64,000 bases of DNA from Staphylococcus phage vB_SauM-UFV_DC4. Under the pieces are notes generated by a model that saw only the letters and a program-made list of their open reading frames with translations, was not told the origin of the DNA and ran no database searches. This document shows positions 15,923 to 39,019 of this stretch, piece by piece (the stretch's first letter is position 1; every line of letters begins with the position of its first letter). The translations under genes were made by a program, and so were the position numbers. The stretch lies in the sequence record MZ779063.1; one strand, 5' to 3'.

Positions 15923-15970
15923 ATATATATTATTAAATTGAGGTAATGACATATTATTTGTCATTACCTC
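15921..15970 (+). promoter_or_regulatory. promoter-like motif aaatatatattattaaattg + hairpin gaggtaatgaca..tgtcattacctc
   Basis: motif copy; 12-bp perfect stem. Confidence 0.45.
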
Positions 15971-16769: not shown

Positions 16770-17072
16770 TTATTTTTCAGGTTTAAAACGGTCTTTAAGT
16801 CTAGGATATAGACGTAGATGCGCTTTACGAGTAGGATCTGTAACAACAATTTGATTTGTTCTAGGATTTCTACGTTTACGCATATCTTCAGGTTTAACTT
16901 CAAGGACACCAATTTCAGGGATAATAGTTTTAGTTTGATCAGCATCATTTGCAGATTCAACAATTATTTCTATCATCTCATTATAAGCATCAACTAGTTC
17001 TCTTTGTGTTAATCCAGTACGTCTAGACCATTCTCTAAAGAAGTGTTTTTGATCTTGAATTTGATTTAGCAT
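16770..17072 (-). CDS. HU/IHF/TF1-family histone-like DNA-binding protein
   Basis: LTQRELVDAYNEMIEII N-terminal helices; beta-arm MRKRRNPRTNQIVVTDPTRKAHLR resembles HU ARKGRNPQTGEEIEIPA. Confidence 0.7.
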   Translation of the reverse strand: MLNQIQDQKHFFREWSRRTGLTQRELVDAYNEMIEIIVESANDADQTKTIIPEIGVLEVKPEDMRKRRNPRTNQIVVTDPTRKAHLRLYPRLKDRFKPEK

Positions 17073-20258: not shown

Positions 20259-20897
20259 TTGACCATGAACAAAAGACAAAGAAAGAAATTAGAGAAGAAA
20301 AAATTAGAAGAACAAAGTAACGAAAAAATTATAGATTTGCCAAAATTAAAAGAAGAAAAGGATGAAGTTAAAATGAATAAAGAAGTTAAAAGAGAAGGAT
20401 CTTACAAGAAATTAACTAAGGAACAAGTACATTATATTGCAGAATTAATTGACAAAGGACACGGAAACACTTATATTTTAAAAGAACTTAAAGCTAAGTT
20501 TGGTATTGACCGTAAATCACATTCAATCACACATATTAGACGTGGTGAACATCCTACATTTAAAGCACTTACAGATGACAATTATCAATTTGCTGAAGTG
20601 GGATATCCTACATTTAATGAATACAAAAAGATTTTACGTGGAGAAGTTAAACCTAAAAGTAAAACACGTGTAAAAGCTGAAGAAAAGGTTAATAAAGTAA
20701 AAGAATCACCAGTAGTAGAAAAATTATCTAATGTTACAGAAGAAAAAGTAGAACAAGTAAAAGAAAAAATGAGTAATATTCAAAAAGATAAAGAAACTGG
20801 TAAAGAATATCGTGATAAAGAAAGTATTCATAAAGCAGGTAAACCTCAAGAAACTATCTTTGATAAGATTATCAAACGTGTTTTAAATATTTTATAA
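20259..20897 (+). CDS. basic K/E-rich protein with possible HTH (putative DNA-binding/regulator)
   Basis: LTKEQVHYIAELIDKGHGNTYILKELKAKFGIDRKSHSITHIRRGE helix-turn-helix-like segment. Confidence 0.4.
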   Translation: MTMNKRQRKKLEKKKLEEQSNEKIIDLPKLKEEKDEVKMNKEVKREGSYKKLTKEQVHYIAELIDKGHGNTYILKELKAKFGIDRKSHSITHIRRGEHPTFKALTDDNYQFAEVGYPTFNEYKKILRGEVKPKSKTRVKAEEKVNKVKESPVVEKLSNVTEEKVEQVKEKMSNIQKDKETGKEYRDKESIHKAGKPQETIFDKIIKRVLNIL

Positions 20898-23216: not shown

Positions 23217-23948
23217 ATGATTGAAGAAGCTTTTAAATTGAATTTCATAAGTCTAATATTAAATATACCTTACTTTTTAATATCAATTTACTTATTTTAT
23301 TATTTTTATACTTACAAGAAAATTAAAAATAATAAAGATGATATATACGATGTAGCACCAGTAGCTTTTACAAGTTATTTGAGTATAATAATTATAATTA
23401 TACTCAAATTATCTACTAATAGTTTATCTCAATATGGTAATTTGATATATCATCCTTTTAAAATATTTACTTTAATTATAGTAGGTTTGATGATGTATGT
23501 TGTACTGGATGCTTCATTATTTATATTTGATAAGATGAAAAGCTCATTAAAGATATTCATTGTATTGAATATCTTTTTAATTGCATTATTAATATCTGAT
23601 TCATTATTGTTTAATATGATTATTATGATAGTTATATCAATTCTATTAATTTTGACTTCATTATACTTTACAGTTGATCATTTAGATAGTAAAGATAAAT
23701 ATGTAAAAATAACTTTTTGCACATTCTTTACTTTATTCCCTCTATTTTTATCACTGTTAGTTATAAATATGGATGTAATTAAATTTAACTTAATAGATGT
23801 TAATACTAATAATAAAATTGATAATATGCATTTAGTTATAATTGTGCAAATAATTTTACTAATATGGAACTTAGCAGTAATGATATTCAAAATATTTAAT
23901 ATCAATATATACACCGTTATATCAGAAGTATTTAAAAGAAATAAATGA
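23217..23948 (+). CDS. polytopic membrane protein (~7 TM)
   Basis: 243 aa, repeated hydrophobic helices; AAGGAGGA SD. Confidence 0.55.
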   Translation: MIEEAFKLNFISLILNIPYFLISIYLFYYFYTYKKIKNNKDDIYDVAPVAFTSYLSIIIIIILKLSTNSLSQYGNLIYHPFKIFTLIIVGLMMYVVLDASLFIFDKMKSSLKIFIVLNIFLIALLISDSLLFNMIIMIVISILLILTSLYFTVDHLDSKDKYVKITFCTFFTLFPLFLSLLVINMDVIKFNLIDVNTNNKIDNMHLVIIVQIILLIWNLAVMIFKIFNINIYTVISEVFKRNK

Positions 23949-23950
23949 AT

Positions 23951-24010
23951 ATTAGGATAATGATCAAATTAATGGTCATTATCCTAATATTATTTTCTTT
24001 TTTTTGTAAC
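23951..24010 (+). terminator. rho-independent terminator (aggataatgatca..tggtcattatcct + T9)
   Basis: 13-bp stem followed by tttctttttttt. Confidence 0.6.
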
Positions 24011-24059
24011 TACTATTATTTTAGATATATATTATAATTATGAAGGGAGGAATATAATA

Positions 24060-24305
24060 ATGATATTTAATATTCTAATAGCAATTGCATATGAGATGCT
24101 TGTTTCTTTAGGTTTAGGTGTTTCAGCTTTTTATATATCTTTATTTTTATTAAGATATATAAAAAATAATATTATCAAGAAAGAAATTAAAAATGAAAAT
24201 AGAAAGTTATTTTATTTTTCATTATTAATAGTTATAATATTTATGTCAATAAAATCATACGTTGATATAAAATTAAGTATTATAGAACAAATATTGAAAA
24301 TGTAA
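24060..24305 (+). CDS. small membrane protein (2 TM)
   Basis: 81 aa; preceded by motif agatatatattataattatgaag and GGGAGG SD. Confidence 0.45.
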   Translation: MIFNILIAIAYEMLVSLGLGVSAFYISLFLLRYIKNNIIKKEIKNENRKLFYFSLLIVIIFMSIKSYVDIKLSIIEQILKM

Positions 24306-24400
24306 AAAGCGTAACATAAGATATTTTAATTATATATTATAATTATGAAGATATAATAATATTAATTATATCTTTAATAAAAATAAAGGAGAAATTAAAA
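24304..24400 (+). repeat. copy 1 of ~95-bp cassette (aaagcgtaac..atatattataattatgaag + hairpin + SD)
   Basis: highly similar to 25337-25420 and 26034-26133 by direct comparison. Confidence 0.6.
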
Positions 24401-24678
24401 TGACAGAATTTGAAAATGAAATTAAAGTATCAAAAGAGGAGAAGAAGATTAAAAGATTTATTGATCAAGGTATTGATAATTTATCTGATACTGTAGGAGA
24501 GAATATTGAAGGTATTCCATTATCTTTAACTGATTATTTTCCTAAAATAAAGAAATTAATTATTAAATTAATTGATCGAGAAGAAAGTGATGAAATTAAA
24601 ATGACAAATGAATTAGGTGAAGTATTTAAATTTAATAGAACTTCACACGATATTTATTTAACATCAACTAAATTTTAA
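24400..24678 (+). CDS. hypothetical protein
   Basis: 92 aa, AAAGGAGAA SD. Confidence 0.45.
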   Translation: MTEFENEIKVSKEEKKIKRFIDQGIDNLSDTVGENIEGIPLSLTDYFPKIKKLIIKLIDREESDEIKMTNELGEVFKFNRTSHDIYLTSTKF

Positions 24679-24715
24679 TGAAAACTTTCTATGATCCAAC
24701 AATAAAATTAAAGGT

Positions 24716-25348
24716 GTGGTATGTATGATTAAAGTCAATGAGCTATTAACAGAAGTTAAGGAAATAAAAACAAATGACAGTTATACGAAATTAATAAATG
24801 AGTATAGAGATATTATTAATGAAGAATATATATCTTATAAACCGTTAAAAGATTATTACAATTTTATTATATATTATCTAGAGAAATCTAGAAATCAAGC
24901 ATTGGAATCTAACAACTTTAATGAATCCAATTTAAATATCAAATTATTAATAGAAGATCTAATGATATTAAAAGATATTGTTAAATCTAATATTTTTGAT
25001 ACTAAAGAAGTAATCAGATCTACTGGGTTTAAATTAACAAATGGTAGTACATTTGATAGAGTTATCAAATACATTAAAGATAAACTAGATGAATTAATTA
25101 TAGAAATAAATTCAAATAATTATAAATATCAAAATATCTATTTCTATCTACCTGAACTAAATAATCTATTGCATAATACAATTCATATAGAACGTGTTTT
25201 AGATAAATATAAGAATAATGTAGATATTATTAATATAAATAAATATAATTTATTTGAAATGATGCCTTGTAATGATATTATGGATAAAGATGAATTTTAT
25301 ATAATGGTTAATCATTTATATGATTTAGGTGTTTTAGAAAAAGCGTAA
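24716..25348 (+). CDS. hypothetical protein
   Basis: 210 aa; preceded by ttctatgatccaa element. Confidence 0.5.
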   Translation: MVCMIKVNELLTEVKEIKTNDSYTKLINEYRDIINEEYISYKPLKDYYNFIIYYLEKSRNQALESNNFNESNLNIKLLIEDLMILKDIVKSNIFDTKEVIRSTGFKLTNGSTFDRVIKYIKDKLDELIIEINSNNYKYQNIYFYLPELNNLLHNTIHIERVLDKYKNNVDIININKYNLFEMMPCNDIMDKDEFYIMVNHLYDLGVLEKA

Positions 25349-25420
25349 CATGTAATAAAATAAGTATATATTATAATTATGAAGAAAGATAAAGTATTAA
25401 TATCTTTCTAAATAAATCAA
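25337..25420 (+). repeat. copy 2 of promoter/hairpin cassette
   Basis: gaaaaagcgtaacatgtaa..aagtatatattataattatgaagaaagata..tatctttc..ggaggaatttaaa. Confidence 0.6.
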
Positions 25421-25606
25421 ATGGAGGAATTTAAAATGAAAAAGAATTTATTATTAAAATCAGCAGTGGGATTTGGGTTAGGTATTGTATTAGGTGTAGT
25501 AAGTAATAAAATTGATGAAATGGTTATGCAGAAGGAAATGGAAAAGCAAATCTTTAAAAGAGCTTCAGAAATAACTTTTGAACATCCATTCAATAATCTA
25601 AAATAA
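25421..25606 (+). CDS. small membrane peptide (MEEFKMKK..GFGLGIVLGVV..NLK)
   Basis: 61 aa, single TM; paralog of 26134-26238 and 26850-27059. Confidence 0.45.
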   Translation: MEEFKMKKNLLLKSAVGFGLGIVLGVVSNKIDEMVMQKEMEKQIFKRASEITFEHPFNNLK

Positions 25607-25687
25607 AGGAGGAAAGAGGATAATTGTTTTAAAGACCTAATGGACAAGGATCAAGTTCATTAGGTCTATAATTTTCTATGATCCAAA
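25600..25687 (+). repeat. copy 1 of ~88-bp terminator module (aggaggaaagaggataattg..agacctaatg..cattaggtct..ttttctatgatccaaa)
   Basis: highly similar to 26234-26322; contains 13-bp stem. Confidence 0.55.
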
Positions 25688-25709
25688 AAATAAAAAGGAG
25701 CTAAAATCA

Positions 25710-26024
25710 ATGAATAACAAAACTAAATTAGCAGAATTAAGAAAAGAATTAAAAATCGTATATTCGGATATACAATTGAGCAAAACAAGTACTATAGAAG
25801 AAAGACTTCACAAGAAAAAGGAAAGACTAATTAAAGAAATTAATGAACTATTAGAAAAAGATCAAAATGTTTTCGATAGAGAAAAACATATAGCAAAAGT
25901 TAAAGATCAGAATAACGATAACATTCACAAGGGATCAGATGAATTTTCTAAGGCAGGTAGACTCCATAGAAAATATCAGAAGCAAGATAAACACAACATT
26001 TTCAATAATCCAGTACAAGATTAA
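25710..26024 (+). CDS. basic coiled-coil protein with C-terminal SKAGRLH motif
   Basis: 104 aa; paralog of 26536-26841 (shared K[GS]xDx[FY][SA]KAGRLHx). Confidence 0.5.
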   Translation: MNNKTKLAELRKELKIVYSDIQLSKTSTIEERLHKKKERLIKEINELLEKDQNVFDREKHIAKVKDQNNDNIHKGSDEFSKAGRLHRKYQKQDKHNIFNNPVQD

Positions 26025-26033
26025 AAAGTTGAA

Positions 26034-26133
26034 TTTGAAAAAGCGTAACGTAAGATATTTTAATTATATATTATAATAATGAAGAAAGAGATTATCATTA
26101 ACTCTTTCTAATAAATTAAAAGGAGAAATTATT
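26034..26133 (+). repeat. copy 3 of promoter/hairpin cassette
   Basis: gaaaaagcgtaacgtaagatattttaattatatattataataatgaagaaagag..ctctttc. Confidence 0.6.
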
Positions 26134-26238
26134 ATGAAAAACTTAGTATTGAAATTAGTAGCAGGATTTGGATTAGGAATTGTGATGGCAGTTGTTTTAG
26201 ACAAGATTGAAGAAATGACGTTCTCTAATTTAAAATAA
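26134..26238 (+). CDS. small membrane peptide (MKNLVLKLVAGFGLGIVMAVV..SNLK)
   Basis: 34 aa, not in ORF track; SD AAAGGAGAA; paralog of 25421-25606. Confidence 0.4.
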   Translation: MKNLVLKLVAGFGLGIVMAVVLDKIEEMTFSNLK

Positions 26239-26322
26239 AGGAGGAAAGAGGATAATTGATTTAAAGACCTAATGAACATAATGGATCAAGTTCATTAGGT
26301 CTATAATTTTCTATGATCCAAA
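26234..26322 (+). repeat. copy 2 of terminator module
   Basis: near-identical to 25600-25687 with perfect stem agacctaatgaac/gttcattaggtct. Confidence 0.55.
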
Positions 26323-26352
26323 CTAAAACTAAAAATAAAAAGGAGAAATTAA

Positions 26353-26529
26353 AATGTTAGAATTAAATGGAATTGAATTTGTAAATGAAAAGGAAATTAA
26401 AGAAGAGGAATTATTATTTAATTATTCAGATGAAGCAAGATATCCATCTGAACAGGCTTATAGAGAAGTAGATTTAATCATTGAGAGCTTCGACAATACA
26501 GCTTTCGGATTAAGAAAATGGGGAGTGTA
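26353..26529 (+). CDS. hypothetical small acidic protein
   Basis: 58 aa ORF with AAAAGGAGAA SD; not in ORF track. Confidence 0.3.
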
Positions 26530-26535
26530 ATTAAA

Positions 26536-26841
26536 ATGGTCAGAGAAGAAAAAATCAAACAAATGAAACAAGAATTACAAGCAATTTTAGACAAAGAAAT
26601 TAGGTTTAATGGTAAACCAATTTCAAATAAACAATTTGAGAGAAAATTAGAACTAATGAAACAAATAGAAAAGTTAAAATTTGACATTAGATCAGAAAGA
26701 TATCTGAGAAATGTCAAAAAGAATAAAATCACTGAGTTTAAGGGTAAAAGTGATTATGCGAAAGCAGGAAGACTACATCAATCTTTCCAAAGTAAAGAAG
26801 AGCATAAAATATGGAAAGACGATTTATTAGTAATTCAATAA
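26536..26841 (+). CDS. basic coiled-coil protein with C-terminal AKAGRLH motif (start ATG 26536)
   Basis: paralog of 25710-26024; ORF track extends to GTG/ATG 26518. Confidence 0.5.
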   Translation: MVREEKIKQMKQELQAILDKEIRFNGKPISNKQFERKLELMKQIEKLKFDIRSERYLRNVKKNKITEFKGKSDYAKAGRLHQSFQSKEEHKIWKDDLLVIQ

Positions 26842-26849
26842 TATATTAA

Positions 26850-27059
26850 ATGGAGGAATTTAAAATGAAAAAGATTATTAAATTAAAAACTGAGTATGCA
26901 TTAATTTTAGGAATGTTAGTTGGACTATTATTAGGATTATTAACTATGAATTTCTTTTTAGCGTTAGATATTATGTTCATGACAACTTTAGCATTTGTAG
27001 GTATGAATCATTATATCGGTGAAAAAAGAATGAATAATAGAAAAGGGGAAGTAAATTAA
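26850..27059 (+). CDS. small membrane protein (MEEFKMKK.. 2 TM)
   Basis: 69 aa; GGAGGAATTTAAA SD identical to 25421 gene. Confidence 0.45.
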   Translation: MEEFKMKKIIKLKTEYALILGMLVGLLLGLLTMNFFLALDIMFMTTLAFVGMNHYIGEKRMNNRKGEVN

Positions 27060-27060
27060 T

Positions 27061-27255
27061 ATGCAGAATAAAATTAAGATAAAACCATGGATAGTATTTT
27101 GGACCGTATTTATTATTGGATTTATAGTTGGAGAAATTCTAGGTTATGTAGAAGGTAAATCATTGTTTGTAGGTATCGTATCAGCATTTATTTGTTTAGG
27201 AATTAATTATATGGTTGGAGAAATTAGAAGAGATATTATTAGAAATAGAAAATAA
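27061..27255 (+). CDS. small membrane protein (2 TM)
   Basis: 64 aa hydrophobic. Confidence 0.4.
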   Translation: MQNKIKIKPWIVFWTVFIIGFIVGEILGYVEGKSLFVGIVSAFICLGINYMVGEIRRDIIRNRK

Positions 27256-27474
27256 AAATTAATTAAATTATAAGGAGTTGAATTGGATATGTTATTAGAA
27301 AACTTCATTACAATTATCGTGTTACTTGGCTTAATGAAATTTACAGGTTGTTTCAAATTTATGAAAGAAATCTGGTCTAACAAAGGTAACAAATAGCAAT
27401 AAAAGAGTGGATTATTTTCTATGATCCACTCTACATATTTAAATTAAAAAAAAAAACGAAAAGAGGAAATTAAA

Positions 27475-27981
27475 ATGAAAAAATTATTAATGACATTAGC
27501 ATCAATCGCTTTAATCGCAGTTATCGGAGCAGCAGGGATATTTGGTTATAGTAGTTTTAAAAGCTTAACAGTCAATAAAGAAGATAGTAAGACTGAAGAA
27601 GTATCTAAAAAGAAAGAAGACAAAAAAGAAAAGAAAGAACAAGAAGAATCAGATAATGTAGAAGTAAATCAACAACAAGATCAAACTCAAGAAGTAAATA
27701 ATAATGAACGACAAAATCAAACTACAGAAGATAATAATACAAATGTACAACAAAATCAACAACAAGAACCAGTAGTTGAAGAGAAAACTCAAGTAACAGA
27801 TAATGAAGGTAATAATATAGATGATATGGATTCAGAAGAATTTATTTCTAAATATACGGAAGGAATGGATGAAGAAGAAGCTCAAACAGTAAAAGACATG
27901 GCTGAAGAAGATTCAGGATATGAAGATTTCTTACGTGGACAAGTAGAAGCTAGACAAAATGGTCAAGGCGGAAATTACTAA
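27475..27981 (+). CDS. membrane-anchored Q/N/E-rich protein, paralog 1
   Basis: MKKLLMTLASIALIAVIGAAGIFGYSSFK N-terminal anchor then low-complexity acidic region. Confidence 0.55.
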   Translation: MKKLLMTLASIALIAVIGAAGIFGYSSFKSLTVNKEDSKTEEVSKKKEDKKEKKEQEESDNVEVNQQQDQTQEVNNNERQNQTTEDNNTNVQQNQQQEPVVEEKTQVTDNEGNNIDDMDSEEFISKYTEGMDEEEAQTVKDMAEEDSGYEDFLRGQVEARQNGQGGNY

Positions 27982-28004
27982 TAAGAAGAAAAGAGTGAAA
28001 TGAA

Positions 28005-28472
28005 ATGAAAAAAATCTTAAGTATTTTAACAGCGATAGCTTTAATCACAGTTATCGGAGCAGCAGGAGTATTCGGATATAGTAGTTTTAAAGAATTAAAT
28101 AATAGTAAAGATAGTCATAAAGTTGAAACAAGTAAAAAACAAAAAGAATTAGATGATAAAAATAACACTCAACAACAAGAACAAAATACATCAAAAGAAA
28201 ACAACAATATCCAACAACAATCAAATGAAGATAGCCTAACAGAAAATATGGATGAAGAATATAAAAAACAACAGGAAATGTATGAAAGGCAATCAAAAGA
28301 TGAAGCTCCAGAACCGGATTCTATAATTGGCAACCCACCAAAAAATTATGAAACTCCAGAAAAAGATAAAATAACTATAAGTGAGTTAAGAGAAGTTTTA
28401 GGCGATGATATTGATGAAAGTAAAATTGATGAAGCAAAAGCGTCTGGCGAATATATTAATGATGAAGAATAA
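28005..28472 (+). CDS. membrane-anchored Q/N/E-rich protein, paralog 2
   Basis: MKKILSILTAIALITVIGAAGVFGYSSFK. Confidence 0.55.
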   Translation: MKKILSILTAIALITVIGAAGVFGYSSFKELNNSKDSHKVETSKKQKELDDKNNTQQQEQNTSKENNNIQQQSNEDSLTENMDEEYKKQQEMYERQSKDEAPEPDSIIGNPPKNYETPEKDKITISELREVLGDDIDESKIDEAKASGEYINDEE

Positions 28473-28503
28473 AAAATAAATAAAAAGAATAGAGGAAAAT
28501 AAA

Positions 28504-28980
28504 ATGAAAAAATTATTAGTATCATTATCAATCTTAGCAGTAATTGTAGTATTAGTAGCGGCAGGTGTGTTTGGATATTCAAAATATAAAGAAGTAGAAA
28601 TGAAACAACAGAATTTAGAAACACAATTAGAAGAAAAAAATTCCAATGAGCAAACTAATGAAAACGATCAACAACAAGAACAAGCAAATACAAATGAATC
28701 TCAAAATCAAGAAAATAGTTCAACAAAAAACAATAACGACAATAAACAAAAAGTATCTAGAGACAATGTATTTGACTATGCTTTAGCTGCAGTAAATGAA
28801 GTAGGTGACGCTGATTTAATGAAATTCCAAGAACCTTCTTACAGTGATGGTGTATGGACAATTGACACTAATAATAAATCTGGTTCAGGATCTAATACTA
28901 TAAAAGTATACGATGATGGCTGGGTACAGATATATGATGGATCTGGTGAAATAGCTCATGAAACAAAAATAGAACTATAA
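28504..28980 (+). CDS. membrane-anchored protein, paralog 3 (globular C-terminal domain)
   Basis: MKKLLVSLSILAVIVVLVAAGVFGYSKYK; C-terminal part less low-complexity. Confidence 0.55.
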   Translation: MKKLLVSLSILAVIVVLVAAGVFGYSKYKEVEMKQQNLETQLEEKNSNEQTNENDQQQEQANTNESQNQENSSTKNNNDNKQKVSRDNVFDYALAAVNEVGDADLMKFQEPSYSDGVWTIDTNNKSGSGSNTIKVYDDGWVQIYDGSGEIAHETKIEL

Positions 28981-29000: not shown

Positions 29001-29246
29001 ATGATTAAAACAGAAACAAAAAATGAACATTTATTTTTCAAATTTATTTCAGAATTAGGACTAACTAACGTGTATGATAACTTTATTGTAAGTGTTCCTT
29101 CAGGTCCTAAATTCATTAGATTAAATGAATTTGATGAAATAGAAGTATATGAAAAATGTAATGAAAATTTACTGAAAGTAGTCAATATAGATCCTAAATT
29201 TGATGATGTATTTTCGTTATTTTTCAAAATAACGAAAGGAATTTAA
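29001..29246 (+). CDS. hypothetical protein
   Basis: 81 aa; AAGGAGTG SD. Confidence 0.45.
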   Translation: MIKTETKNEHLFFKFISELGLTNVYDNFIVSVPSGPKFIRLNEFDEIEVYEKCNENLLKVVNIDPKFDDVFSLFFKITKGI

Positions 29247-29252
29247 AATATT

Positions 29253-29304
29253 ATAGTCATGAATCTATTTATGTAGATTCATGACTATTAATTATATATT
29301 TTTT
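29253..29304 (+). terminator. rho-independent terminator (atagtcatgaatctat..atgtagattcatgactat)
   Basis: long stem, downstream T-run. Confidence 0.5.
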
Positions 29305-29324
29305 TATAAATATAAGAAAGAGAG

Positions 29325-30026
29325 ATGACATTAATTGTGTATGAAATTTCAATAGCTTTAATGTTTTTAATTGTAATATATTTTTCATTCAATACAATAT
29401 ATAAAACATTAGTAAGTGCGTATAACGAAAAATTAAAAGGAAAGTTCTTTTCCACAACGTTTTTTACATTTAGTTTATTATTTCCAATAATGATTATTGT
29501 ATTTTACAATATAGATGGAATAAATATTAAAATAGAATATGTTTTATTTTATTTCCTGTTGTTAATAATTAACTTTGCATTAAATAAATTTCTTAAAGTT
29601 CATGATATTATAGTATATACGTCATTATTCTATTCTTTATTTATAATGAATTACCATTATGAAATAGCTAATGACTTATATTTTGCTATATTTATTGTAA
29701 TAATCAATTTGATAATTCCATTAATTAAAATTGAATTTCAATTAATTGAAATGGCAATTCAAACTGATGGAGAATATAAAGATATAGATGTAAAAAAGAA
29801 TATAGTAAGACAGAATTTAAAAATAGTTAATTTAAATGATAATAATACACAATTCTCATTAGATGATTTTCTTGAAAGTAAATTTAATAATGATGAAGAA
29901 TCAATAAGTGTCTTCTTAGATGAAATGATTGAAAGAATATATTCTGAAAGAATAAATATAAAATTGTATTGTTATCATATATTAATGGGATTATTAACTA
30001 TATACTTTTTATTATCTCAAATTTAA
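29325..30026 (+). CDS. membrane protein (~5 TM) with soluble C-terminal domain
   Basis: 233 aa, hydrophobic N-terminal two-thirds. Confidence 0.5.
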   Translation: MTLIVYEISIALMFLIVIYFSFNTIYKTLVSAYNEKLKGKFFSTTFFTFSLLFPIMIIVFYNIDGINIKIEYVLFYFLLLIINFALNKFLKVHDIIVYTSLFYSLFIMNYHYEIANDLYFAIFIVIINLIIPLIKIEFQLIEMAIQTDGEYKDIDVKKNIVRQNLKIVNLNDNNTQFSLDDFLESKFNNDEESISVFLDEMIERIYSERINIKLYCYHILMGLLTIYFLLSQI

Positions 30027-35325: not shown

Positions 35326-35371
35326 AAGTATATATTATAATTATGAAGAAAGATATTATCATATATCTTTC
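35326..35371 (+). promoter_or_regulatory. promoter-like motif aagtatatattataattatgaag + hairpin gaaagatat..atatctttc
   Basis: fourth copy of the cassette seen at 24.3-26.1 kb. Confidence 0.45.
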
Positions 35372-35382
35372 TAATAAAATTA

Positions 35383-38359: not shown

Positions 38360-39019
38360 ATGAGTAATTATTTATATCGTTTTAACAAAGAGAATGTAAA
38401 TATCTTCTATCATAAAAGGACTAATAATGGTCATAAAATGTTATTTAATAATAGTAATGATAAAGATAGATCTATATACTTAATAAATACTGATGAAGAA
38501 ATCAATAATATGGAACTAGTATCTAAATATATTGCTGGAAAAGTATTTGAAATACTAAACCAAGAAAATATGAAAATAGTACATATGGATTTCTTTAATA
38601 GTAAATTAGAATTCTTTATAAGTAGATCATCCAAGAATAAATATATAATGAATATGTATTTTAGTTTAAAAAGTTATAATGATCTAATAGAAAATGAAAA
38701 AGAATTTATAGATAGTGTTAATGAGCTTAATTTAGACTTTTTAAAATCAGTTTCTTTAGATCAAGACAATAATCATGTATTAGATATGACATTAATATTT
38801 TTAATAGATAAAAATAAAATAGATGAATTTATTAAAAATCTATTTTACATTAATTATGTAAAGATAATAGAATTTATAATAGATACTATATCAGTATATG
38901 CAGATGATTACAAGAAATTTAATGAAGAAATAAATATTCTTTTGGATCATAGAAATTTTGTAGAGGAAATAACATATAAAGAATATAAAAAGATAATGAC
39001 AAAAGAGATGTTTATTTAA
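38360..39019 (+). CDS. KENFK-family protein
   Basis: ends TYKEYKKIMTKEMFI; preceded by long stem tctcatccattc..gaatggatgaga. Confidence 0.5.
   Translation: MSNYLYRFNKENVNIFYHKRTNNGHKMLFNNSNDKDRSIYLINTDEEINNMELVSKYIAGKVFEILNQENMKIVHMDFFNSKLEFFISRSSKNKYIMNMYFSLKSYNDLIENEKEFIDSVNELNLDFLKSVSLDQDNNHVLDMTLIFLIDKNKIDEFIKNLFYINYVKIIEFIIDTISVYADDYKKFNEEINILLDHRNFVEEITYKEYKKIMTKEMFI

Follow-up and report, generated by a model that had tools for sequence, protein, structure and literature searches.

Small ORFan genes between repeated predicted early-promoter and intercistronic hairpin modules in an S6-like Staphylococcus jumbo phage

Results and discussion

Genes of the repeat-bearing region

The window analysed here, a 64,000-nucleotide stretch of Staphylococcus phage vB_SauM-UFV_DC4 (MZ779063.1), corresponds to Staphylococcus jumbo phage S6 at 99.6% identity by genome comparison. 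The phage is of the AR9/PBS1 type with two phage RNA polymerases (RNAPs), and virion and non-virion RNAP subunits are annotated in relatives of S6. An upstream early operon is closed by a strong plus-strand intrinsic terminator (23948–23991), a 19-bp stem followed by ATTTTCTTTT at 23992. It is the sole terminator-like site called by a terminator scan of 23500–28500, and a terminator is annotated at the orthologous place in phage MarsHill. The plus-strand genes that follow begin with S6_2270 (24060–24305), encoding an 81-aa two-TM membrane protein with no significant family match; S6_2280 (24400–24678), a 92-aa acidic ORFan (hereinafter p92) absent from phages PB50, AH12 and Machias; and S6_2290 (24725–25348), a 207-aa helical ORFan (p207) that is a distant paralog of MarsHill gp013. 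Downstream lie pepA (S6_2300, 25436–25606), encoding a 56-aa single-pass membrane peptide with a dN/dS of about 0.08–0.23 against its orthologs, and KAG1 (S6_2310, 25710–26024), encoding a 104-aa basic helical protein with an invariant KAGRLH motif.

A second, shorter series comprises a relic (26025–26049), the final ~25 nt of a p207-like gene that has been deleted and is the orthologue of MarsHill gp013; pepB (26134–26238), a 34-aa membrane-peptide gene without annotation in the S6 record; S6_2320 (26354–26530), a 58-aa acidic ORFan (p58); and KAG2 (S6_2330, 26536–26841), encoding a 101-aa basic helical KAGRLH paralog. Three small membrane-protein genes (26865–27059, 27061–27255 and 27289–27396, the last without annotation in S6) lead to a DNA repeat family of three tandem paralogs of 168, 155 and 158 aa (27475–28980), all of which have a membrane anchor at the N terminus and a tail that is acidic and rich in Q, N and E.

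DNA repeat families found in the window show that the repetition noted in a sequence-only reading is real and non-random. That reading had described a triplicated cassette; the promoter block is indeed present in at least three copies, whereas the peptide-module-KAGRLH unit has two. The paralogy proposed for the two peptides and for the two KAGRLH proteins holds, at 60–67% and 29–35% identity, respectively. The 34-aa peptide is a form of a ~55-aa family carrying an in-frame 21-aa deletion, and none of the 16 known family members departs from the KAGRLH motif. The unit arose by an old tandem duplication, partly eroded in the window, of a cassette with three genes; these encode a p207-like protein together with a single-pass membrane peptide of ~55 aa and a basic helical protein of ~100 aa. 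These genes are clade-restricted ORFans under purifying selection: dN/dS is about 0.1–0.5 and synonymous divergence among phages is 0.3–0.5. The dN/dS values, the TM segment of the peptides and the basic character of the KAG proteins indicate that the cassette genes are real. Their products may be early host-takeover or exclusion-type factors; the earlier suggestion of membrane-targeting early factors is reasonable, if generic.

A predicted early promoter joined to a 5′-terminal hairpin

The ~95-bp block reported at three sites recurs at 24293–24387, 25327–25421 and 26027–26121 with 66–73% ungapped identity. Exact copies of its 18-mer TATATTATAATTATGAAG occur at 24028, 24333, 25367 and 35331, and the copy at 26067 carries a single mismatch. 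The copy at 24028 had been overlooked. The copy at 35326–35371, previously described as degenerate, is not: it has the exact 18-mer at 35331 and a 10-bp hairpin, and differs merely in the absence of the upstream element AAAGCGTAAC. The latter is matched exactly only at 24306–24315, 25340–25349 and 26040–26049, all on the plus strand, and is interpreted as the 3′ coding end of p207-like genes (..EKA-stop), or what remains of it.

The block had been taken for a promoter, which is correct in kind but not in class; the match is to the early promoter that the virion RNAP uses in jumbo phages of the AR9 type. The AR9 early consensus, AAATATATATTAT-N6-G+1, was mapped experimentally (Lavysh et al. 2017, PMC5312081), and 29 MarsHill genes are preceded by a near-identical predicted motif (bioRxiv 10.1101/2020.12.14.422802). 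The S6 sites share with the AR9/PBS1 promoters the core and spacing TATATTAT-N6-G+1 and an AT-rich TAAATA upstream, lie upstream of and co-oriented with small ORFan genes, as in that system, and occur, as predicted promoters, at a similar density of about 29 full-consensus sites per genome. The core has 41 matches across the S6 genome, and the window holds 15 against 4.9 expected, 12 of them on the plus strand within the plus-oriented gene block. The early promoter is a genome-wide module and nothing special to the peptide/KAGRLH cassette.

The hairpin of the block is also real and would form the 5′ terminus of the transcript, beginning at +1 to +3. On the plus strand, the cores at 24333–24347, 25367–25381 and 26067–26081 have predicted starts at G24347, G25381 and G26081 and stem-loops at 24347–24375 (−8.2 kcal/mol), 25383–25409 and 26083–26109, respectively. 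A fifth member of the sub-family, also on the plus strand (core 35331–35345, predicted start G35345), carries a stem-loop at 35347–35372, and the plus-strand core at 24028–24042 (predicted start G24042) is followed directly by a Shine-Dalgarno (SD) sequence without a 5′ hairpin. With a hairpin defined by ΔG ≤ −6 and a start at +1 to +3, one is carried by 24 of the 29 full-consensus promoters of S6 and by 19 of the 29 of PB50, compared with 4.9% of random positions. The stem sequences vary from promoter to promoter, and 5′ hairpins are also present in a distant metagenomic relative. The promoter and 5′ hairpin together are the standard early start module of S6, which we would write as a virion-RNAP early promoter TAAATA-TATATTAT-N4-TG, starting at G and joined to a stem-loop.

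Such a promoter would let the injected polymerase transcribe at once, independently of protein synthesis. While S6-clade early promoters are mostly joined to a stable stem-loop, none of the early core matches in a sampled 50-kb stretch of AR9, annotated promoters included, is followed by one, so that polymerases of this type do not need the hairpin. In a Gram-positive host it may shield the mRNA from 5′-end-dependent decay of the RNase J1/RppH type, although some other role could equally account for it given the AR9 result. Firmicutes mRNAs are stabilized by 5′-terminal stem-loops or SD-like sequences, namely the aprE leader, ermC, STAB-SD and the SP82 polypurine element. The S6 hairpin resembles these in lying 0–2 unpaired nucleotides from the 5′ end and being followed by a strong SD, and a polypurine tract, AAAGGAGGAAAGAGG, heads the S6 intercistronic module described below in the manner of the SD-like stabilizers; unlike for those elements, the stabilizing role in S6 is read solely from position. 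The Firmicutes stabilizers appear in the reference list of a review (PMC3997798).

These expression signals bear on the proposal that the peptide/KAGRLH pairs form a toxin-antidote or holin-antiholin system, with the peptide as toxic effector and its basic partner, or an antisense RNA, as control. A small hydrophobic peptide does adjoin a basic partner, the pair is duplicated, and phage LY01 lacks the first peptide while its KAG partner has a premature stop. Against this, the genes are preceded by early promoters, none of them has a late consensus upstream, and the opposite strand has no promoter motif, early or late, directed at the peptide genes; there is neither a significant holin nor a toxin-antitoxin family match, and AH12 lacks the second peptide yet retains an intact KAG2. 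The endolysin and an annotated holin are encoded elsewhere in the genome. We regard the holin/toxin reading as unsupported and most improbable.

Intercistronic hairpins and a conserved 13-mer

The second repeated signal lies between genes. The two 88-bp modules reported to be near-identical are 91–100% identical. Module A (25604–25685) contains an SD-like polypurine tract (25607–25619), a hairpin (25633–25667, z −4.1) and a 13-mer, TTTCTATGATCCA (hereinafter BOX13), at 25673–25685; module B (26236–26320) contains a hairpin (26265–26302, z −3.8) and BOX13 at 26308–26320. The 13-bp hairpin, described earlier as perfect, exists but includes one G·U pair. A further conserved hairpin at 27404–27432 (−16.8 kcal/mol, z −5.2), with a UUUCU loop and a 3′ arm supplied by BOX13 (27416–27428), precedes the 168-, 155- and 158-aa paralogs in all phages examined. 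Folding z-scores of the hairpins thus range from −3.8 to −5.2. Across phages, the 27404–27432 hairpin is 97.8% paired with two compensatory pairs, and pairing is 98% across the BOX13 hairpins, with compensatory and one-sided G·U changes that pair in the sense strand only, in small samples of 11 and 8 distinct sequences with one or two compensatory pairs each.

BOX13 had been counted four times. Four exact plus-strand copies are present, at 24686, 25673, 26308 and 27416, and the window holds a fifth on the minus strand (38943–38955), antisense inside the 3′ end of the plus-strand gene S6_2560 and conserved in PB50. The reported position 35–60 nt upstream of start codons agrees with the distances of 39, 37, 46 and 59 nt to the next ATG; the first copy (24686–24698) is without a hairpin and lies 8 nt past the p92 stop. 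In the 267-kb S6 genome BOX13 occurs 8 times against 0.037 expected under a first-order Markov model, and eight phage genomes, that of an S. lentus phage among them, each have it at 3–6 intergenic sites, often as part of a hairpin. Among the copies in early regions of seven phages and phage SA1, 28 of 30 are exact and the other two differ at the final base alone, while the proteins encoded there are merely 32–90% identical. We propose that the intercistronic module consists of a conserved RNA hairpin and an invariant 13-mer whose distance to the following start codon is 37–59 nt.

The modules had been called terminator modules. Their hairpins are conserved with covariation, but as a U-tract their tail, AUAAUUUUCU, is weak, and neither module is called by the terminator scan. 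The hairpin with BOX13 could still be an intrinsic terminator or attenuator that yields abundant peptide mRNA and limited read-through, with BOX13 as its conserved tail: the hairpin is stable, and AUAAUUUUCU resembles the proximal tails of bona fide terminators of this phage, namely ATTTTCTTTT at 23992 and the ATATTATTTCT that precedes a T-run downstream of S6_1200/S6_1210. However, CUACAUAUUU, which follows the 27404–27432 hairpin, is no U-tract, the invariant part reaches past any U-tract (AUGAUCCA), and the 24686 copy has no hairpin at all. In SA1, one copy of BOX13 is located 33 nt past an early start site, inside the early 5′ UTR, where a terminator would be pointless unless regulated. 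Termination as the function of the element is unlikely, although the hairpin and AUAAUUUUCU after the peptide gene may also attenuate read-through.

A role at the DNA level, in which BOX13 is an operator or the core of a third promoter class (middle-type or host sigma-A) giving downstream genes a second mode of expression, is doubtful. BOX13 lies upstream of genes within early operons, as do the internal late promoters of AR9 early operons, which make genes continuously expressed. It contains TATG, and the late promoters of phiKZ are TATG with G as the start (stated in PMC5312081). In the hairpin-module form, the commonest, a perfect TATAAT lies immediately 5′ of BOX13 and would fit a −10 element too. 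The element occurs in both orientations, including a reversed copy 22 nt upstream of tRNA-Asn and a copy in a divergent promoter region, and an HU-like DNA-binding protein is encoded nearby. Yet BOX13 matches neither the early nor the AR9-like AACA-N6-TA late consensus of the clade; no consistent −35 or extended −10 accompanies it, and TATAAT is missing from its other forms. If a TATG start is assumed, conservation reaches +6 and no fixed initiator follows, and there are merely 7–8 copies per genome. The late promoter of the AR9-type non-virion RNAP, AACA-N6-T(A/G), is itself in use in the S6 clade (AACA-N6-TA stands upstream of more than half of 22 PB50 late genes inspected by eye), and an ACAA often follows BOX13. 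In contrast to that promoter, BOX13 has no AACA at −11 to −8 of its own TATG, and the AACA after it lacks a properly spaced T(A/G) in most copies. The HTH protein at 20259, earlier suggested for binding assays with the element, has no Pfam match at E ≤ 0.01.

The position of BOX13 in SA1 and the hairpin covariation, with its strand-specific G·U pairs, favour an RNA leader element over an operator or promoter. BOX13 is most likely an mRNA leader element, which in the form UUUCUAUGAUCCA would be recognized in the sense strand by a trans-acting factor that sets processing, stability or translation for a subset of early genes. In S6-like phages we infer the start sites, the effect of the 5′ hairpin and every function of BOX13 from sequence. 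Three of the eight S6 copies have the other genome orientation: one is antisense inside a gene, another is antisense beside a tRNA gene, and the third, within the 3′ UTR of a gene on the minus strand, is sense to that gene. The two antisense copies are left unexplained by a role that is purely at the RNA level and in the sense strand.

Intercistronic RNA signals of phage early operons include the RNase III sites of T7 and SP82, the lambda nut boxA/boxB and the T4 RegA/RegB targets. As in these systems, the S6 element combines a short conserved sequence with a hairpin between early genes, in the sense strand and repeated several times per region. It shows no sequence similarity to any of them and no match in Rfam, and its 12–13-bp stems are short for RNase III when compared with RNase III sites.

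Recombination at the repeats

Being repeated and nearly identical, these elements also serve as substrates for homologous recombination, by which cassettes are deleted, inserted and converted, as genome comparison shows. Indel junctions between phages coincide with the repeats. In LY01, the end of p92 is joined to the KAG1 leader precisely at BOX13 (crossover point, copy 24686); in AH12, a promoter leader is joined to p58 inside a common SD-ATG sequence; MarsHill has an extra gene with a hairpin-BOX13 copy on both sides; and S6 retains the 3′ relic of the deleted gp013-like gene. Module B has four clustered differences from the S6 record, which is in the module A state, and these form a 24-nt gene-conversion tract between UFV_DC4 and the S6 record.

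BOX13 with its hairpin might instead be a short repeat that is selfish or mobile, resembling a MITE or serving as a homing target, with its own spread as its sole function and gene shuffling as a by-product. BOX13 does border presence/absence polymorphisms, the S6 copies beside tRNA-Asn and after S6_1210 are missing from PB50, and these phages encode many homing endonucleases. Terminal inverted repeats and target-site duplications are absent, however, and the 13-mer stays constant, at a fixed position relative to start codons, in varying flanks and across 32–90% protein divergence, which points to selection on the BOX13 sequence itself and makes a selfish repeat very unlikely.

On balance, the region as a whole is probably best explained as a hyperplastic early-gene stretch of an S6-like Staphylococcus jumbo phage, in which small ORFan cassettes lie between two kinds of repeated regulatory signal that would act as an early start module and an intercistronic hairpin-BOX13 module. 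The closest analogue is the promoter-early stem-loop (PeSL) cassette of T4-type phages (Arbiol et al. 2010, PMC2839356; Comeau et al. 2014, PMC4122927). Like PeSLs, the S6 repeats are composites of an early promoter and a stem-loop, concentrated among non-essential ORFans of hyperplastic regions, and the indel or replacement junctions of close relatives fall in them. Unlike PeSLs, which use host sigma-70, the S6 promoter is one for the phage's own multisubunit RNAP, and the S6 stem-loop, lying downstream of the start site and without a U-tract, probably acts on the mRNA 5′ end and not as a terminator. S6 differs further in that a second, promoter-less repeat (hairpin and BOX13) and the SD-ATG region are also junctions.

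A predicted early promoter of the AR9 class

The sequence-only reading of the region at ~24-28 kb had outlined a cassette made up of a promoter, a hairpin, paired paralogs and an extra conserved box; all four withstood our analysis, whereas specifics attached to them proved wrong or unproven. Over the 4-kb region, identity to Staphylococcus phage S6 (LC680885, 267 kb) is 99.6%. A split multisubunit virion RNA polymerase (RNAP) is annotated in PB50, MarsHill and PALS_2, collinear relatives of S6, and split non-virion RNAP subunits are annotated in relatives' records as well. S6, its relatives and vB_StaM_SA1 (S. lentus), a ninth phage that carries the 88-bp intercistronic module described below at 81% identity, are phages of the AR9/PBS1 type. 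Genes for non-virion RNAP β′ and a DNA primase lie just upstream of the region, the GC content is ~20-27%, and the genes of the region are 'hypothetical' throughout in all records.

A repeat search of the DNA recovered the 95-nt promoter/hairpin block three times, as had been claimed, and an 18-nt box four times. Exact copies of the 18-mer TATATTATAATTATGAAG lie at 24028, 24333, 25367 and 35331, and 26067 has a copy with a single mismatch; the 24028 copy, which has no hairpin, had been overlooked, and the 35331 copy, previously called degenerate, has the exact motif plus a 10-bp stem. The early consensus of AR9, AAATATATATTAT-N6-G(+1), was mapped experimentally and serves the injected virion RNAP, which needs no newly made protein to use it (PMC5312081), and a near-identical motif was found ahead of 29 MarsHill genes by its authors (bioRxiv 10.1101/2020.12.14.422802). 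The blocks read TATATATTAT-AAT(T/A)AT-G, an exact fit to that consensus, and all five sub-family copies conform to (T/A)ATATATTAT-AAT(T/A)AT-G. The AR9-type motif is over-represented, intergenic and oriented like the downstream genes, with 15 core matches in the window (4.9 expected), 47 genome-wide in PB50 and 41 in S6, 35 of which lie upstream of predicted genes. Judged from sequence, the fit to the AR9 consensus and the genome-wide core matches argue that the block is this phage's standard early start signal, neither a special cassette promoter nor one of host type. A host σ70 promoter was rejected for lack of a -35 element in the block, and a σ70 scan gave 53 sites against 42.7 ± 5.0, no real enrichment. 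Both the promoter class and the phage were already known.

Jumbo phages with RNAPs of their own are thought to time their genes by just two promoter classes. In PB50, the late genes (major head, sheath, tape measure, fibres, baseplate, holin and others) bear the AR9 late motif AACA-N6-TA, which we recognised through direct inspection of late-gene upstream regions; by eye, it lies 30-90 nt 5′ of more than half of 22 late or structural gene starts. A crude k-mer enrichment was uninformative (AACA-N6-T[AG] in 24 of 130 upstream regions versus ~14 in shuffles), and in the MarsHill preprint MEME is reported to have been unable to find a late motif (bioRxiv 10.1101/2020.12.14.422802).

Genes in the first 40 kb of the window lie on the + strand, with an HU-type gene at 16770-17072 on the - strand, the sole - strand gene in the checked part of the + oriented early block. 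Its product (PF00216, E 4e-9) agrees with the HU annotation of AR9 g103 and is a candidate binder of dU-DNA sites. The protein at 20265-20897, read earlier as a helix-turn-helix protein at ~20259, has no Pfam match at E <= 0.01.

Hairpins at the predicted 5′ ends of early transcripts

The hairpin of the block is real and, if the G is the predicted start, begins at +1 to +3 of the RNA. Each of the two genomes S6 and PB50 has 29 full-consensus promoters, and a hairpin of <= -6 kcal/mol that starts at +1 to +3 accompanies 24 of them in S6 and 19 in PB50, compared with 4.9% of 2000 random positions; given the predicted start site, hairpin ΔG ranges from -7.6 to -19 kcal/mol. The stems are wholly unlike in sequence among promoters (GAGACAATG.., GTGAAAGATG.., GAGGTAATGAC.., GAAGAAAGA..), indicating that pairing, not sequence, is kept. 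The same promoter-hairpin arrangement is present in a distant metagenomic relative. In a sampled 50-kb stretch of AR9, no promoter-core match is followed by a stable 5′ hairpin, so the feature appears specific to the staphylococcal clade.

These hairpins are probably not terminators, as A-rich sequence rather than a U-tract lies 3′ of them, and a terminator scan called none. 5′-terminal stem-loops protect aprE and other Firmicute mRNAs from 5′-end-dependent decay. By analogy, the best-fitting known role would be that of a 5′-terminal stabiliser against such decay, with a stable hairpin lying within about 4 nt of the predicted 5′ end. The 5′-hairpin rule has no description in the literature searched.

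A near-identical 5′ hairpin (GAGGTAATGAC..GTCATTACCTC-TAATAT) is common to the promoters at 15926 and 21976 of the window and at 179375, 193901, 223112 and 229147 of S6; promoter-hairpin units therefore form sequence families, as if copied around the genome.

Membrane-directed ORFans and their paralogy

None of the ten region proteins matches a PHROG, and their Pfam matches are all sub-threshold, below every curated cut-off. A profile search of 5.8 billion proteins returned 16 members of the family of KAG1 (25710-26024) and KAG2 (26536-26841), which share the KAGRLH motif; each member comes from this clade or a short metagenome contig. The AlphaFold model of KAG1 consists of three helices (pLDDT 74.6) without a significant fold match in the PDB (best E-value 0.37); the net charges of the KAG proteins are +6 and +10, and the peptide has a single hydrophobic (transmembrane) segment. 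With synonymous divergence between phages of 0.3-0.5, a dN/dS of ~0.1-0.5 shows that the genes are real and that purifying selection acts on them. Downstream of the cassette lie another six genes for small membrane proteins; with the peptides and KAG proteins they make up a block of early ORFans directed to the membrane.

The peptide had been proposed to be holin-like. Holins are small transmembrane proteins that are made late and usually encoded beside the endolysin. Such a function is unlikely for the peptide, given that its promoters are of the early class, that there is no late motif 5′ of it, and that endolysin and holin are located elsewhere; the best holin Pfam score in the region, obtained by another protein, is 16 bits against a cut-off of 28.4. 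As a small hydrophobic protein the peptide resembles type I toxins, whose partner is the gene of an overlapping antisense RNA, and a scan of the opposite strand for early and late promoter motifs found none facing it.

Two small membrane-peptide genes, pepB (26134-26238) and 27289-27396, are unannotated in the S6 record, have good Shine-Dalgarno sequences (SDs) and are conserved in relatives; these genes, corrected start sites and the late-promoter consensus are gains for annotation. At 27475-28980, three tandem paralogs (168, 155 and 158 aa) combine an N-terminal membrane anchor, MKKLL..IGAAG(I/V)FGYS, with acidic Q/N/E-rich low-complexity tails, and differ in copy number and sequence among phages. 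In LY01, the KAG1 orthologue (L010 4718-5032) has an in-frame stop right after KAGRLHRKYQK, and the adjacent peptide gene is absent.

The paralogy proposed earlier was borne out: pepA (25436-25606) and pepB are true paralogs, the 34-aa pepB having lost 21 aa in frame, and so are the two KAGRLH proteins. The word AAAGCGTAAC was rejected as a regulatory element, as its copy 2 is the end of the gene for p207, a 207-aa ORFan protein (..EKA-stop). The 25 nt just before copy 3 correspond to the 3′-terminal codons of MarsHill gp013, whose 222-aa product is distantly paralogous to p207 (27% identity across 157 aa, E 7e-4); S6 has lost this gene, which MarsHill keeps. Because copies 2 and 3 of the promoter block follow a p207-like gene end or relic, the ancestral unit was p207-like gene, promoter, hairpin, ~55-aa peptide, module, BOX13 (the 13-mer TTTCTATGATCCA) and KAGRLH protein, present twice. 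The duplication is old, since the KAG paralogs are ~30% identical and the repeat search found no DNA-level repeat spanning KAG1 and KAG2; the regulatory DNA between them, modules A (25604-25685) and B (26236-26320), is still 91-100% identical. Global identities with free end gaps are inflated by AT-richness and were left out of these results.

BOX13, a conserved 13-mer of early regions

The extra conserved box noticed earlier is also real: the window has five exact copies of BOX13, one of them on the minus strand, and S6 has eight, where 0.037 copies are expected. The early regions of seven phages hold 4-6 sites each while flanks and proteins diverge; 25 of the 27 copies are exact and the remaining two differ at the last base only. 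SA1 has exact copies at three intergenic sites although its proteins are merely 32-59% identical. An IMG/VR scan with the 14-mer TTTTCTATGATCCA gave only single chance matches on unrelated contigs, and in an avoidance check GATC was not depleted (635 observed, 582 expected).

The distance from the start of BOX13 to the next ATG is always 37-59 nt. Three contexts recur, in which BOX13 (a) follows a 13-bp hairpin 3′ of a peptide gene, (b) supplies both the UUUCU loop and the 3′ arm in a 12-bp hairpin ahead of the 27475 gene family, or (c) stands bare, 1-8 nt past a stop codon. Both hairpins are 98% paired across phages, with one and two compensatory pairs, respectively, and folding z-scores of -3.8 to -5.2; several one-sided changes yield G.U pairs, which form in the sense strand only. 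In form (a), the 5′ arm drifts, the 3′ arm and BOX13 make up a nearly invariant 38-nt stretch, and a perfect TATAAT lies directly 5′ of BOX13. An H-type pseudoknot between loop GGAUCA and BOX13 UGAUCC could pair in 9 of 13 module copies, BOX13 itself never varying.

What BOX13 might be was weighed against known signals. The 88-bp module has a conserved 13-bp stem, but its tail AUAAUUUUCU has just 2 U in the first 5 nt, and the terminator scan made no call on it; Rfam 15 gave no match at gathering score in 23500-28500, only four sub-threshold chance matches. An AR9-type late promoter was rejected because positions -11 to -8 of the BOX13 TATG read TAAT or AAAC, not AACA. In SA1, one copy sits 33 nt into an early 5′ UTR, where a promoter or plain terminator would make little sense. 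As far as the sequence tells, BOX13 would fall in no known promoter class. Given the missing late motif and the SA1 copy inside an early 5′ UTR, our preferred reading is a leader element of the mRNA that some factor recognises; form (a) may also act as an attenuator. A bolder proposal, which we advance tentatively and consider somewhat improbable, is that a dedicated factor recognises BOX13, which usually lies in or by a hairpin, and that S6-like jumbo phages would thereby have a hidden regulon, either post-transcriptional or of a third transcriptional kind. The factor might be a phage RNA-binding repressor, a processing nuclease or the 16S rRNA 3′ tail, in which UGGAUCA, located before the anti-SD, is complementary to BOX13 UGAUCCA and could pair with it. 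Resemblances by eye to DnaA, CodY and Fur boxes were dropped as partial matches. Mini-ORFs in the module and BOX13 (ATG ATC CAA..) show no consistent SD or length and were set aside.

BOX13 has no description in the literature searched. If true, its regulon would be an early-gene control layer undescribed for AR9/phiKZ-type phages; with a clade-wide 5′ hairpin on early transcripts and a leader box that does not vary, regulation would gain post-transcriptional layers so far unmapped.

Three S6 copies run in the opposite genomic orientation. One, at 38943-38955 (-) of the window, lies antisense within a + strand gene, at its 3′ end and ~70 nt ahead of where the next gene starts, and is conserved in PB50; RNA from it would pair perfectly with sense BOX13 copies. 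Another, outside the window at S6 115070-115160, lies antisense in a hairpin 22 nt upstream of tRNA-Asn, with a GC-rich segment, unusual for the genome, before BOX13 and a second tRNA-like T-arm after the tRNA; PB50 is without both this tRNA-Asn and its BOX13 copy. The third, in the 3′ UTR of minus-strand S6_1210 and sense to that gene, is absent from PB50.

Recombination junctions at the repeats

Differences between the phages repeatedly fall at these repeats. In LY01, which lacks p207, pepA, one promoter and one module, the end of the gene for p92 (a 92-aa ORFan protein) is joined through BOX13 to the KAG1 leader, and BOX13 is the exact point at which the sequence switches partner. In AH12, the gene for the 58-aa ORFan p58 is fused to promoter-hairpin-SD-ATG, with the crossover within shared AAAAGGAGAAATTAnnATG. 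MarsHill has an additional 510-nt gene between two hairpin-BOX13 copies, and in PB50, AH12 and Machias the first genes are replaced by another gene whose stop abuts BOX13. The window differs from the S6 record at 21 positions in 7.1 kb, four of which cluster in a 24-nt part of module B (26259, 26275, an ATA indel at 26278, and 26282); each converts the B to the A state, and together they mark a gene-conversion tract.

In the promoter-early stem-loop (PeSL) cassettes of T4-type phages, indel and replacement junctions of related phages fall in the repeats (PMC2839356; PMC4122927). The present system likewise joins an early promoter to a stable stem-loop in many repeats, and here too such junctions between related phages fall in the repeats; it differs in that its promoter serves the phage polymerase, whereas the PeSL promoter is of host σ70 type, and in having a second, promoter-less repeat. 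In T4-like phages, which use the host polymerase, PeSL evolution relies on short regulatory cassettes whose repeats serve as recombination handles for ORFan genes. The present region shows this way of evolving at work in jumbo phages with uracil-DNA, an unrelated lineage. If true, the proposed BOX13 system, coupled to the 5′-hairpin promoters, would amount to PeSL-like gene shuffling without host RNA polymerase. The literature searched has no description of PeSL-like shuffling in these jumbo phages. The phages concerned are under consideration for therapy and transduce DNA between staphylococci.

Beyond the cassette, 29117-29990 of the window holds 53 differences from the S6 record in 0.9 kb, compared with 21 in the 7.1 kb before it; this divergent patch has sharp borders and probably reflects recombinational replacement. 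Outside the window, a gene-free stretch of 1.1-1.3 kb directly 5′ of a retron-like reverse transcriptase gene (S6 166278-167556, PB50 152491-153589) may encode the non-coding RNA of that enzyme.
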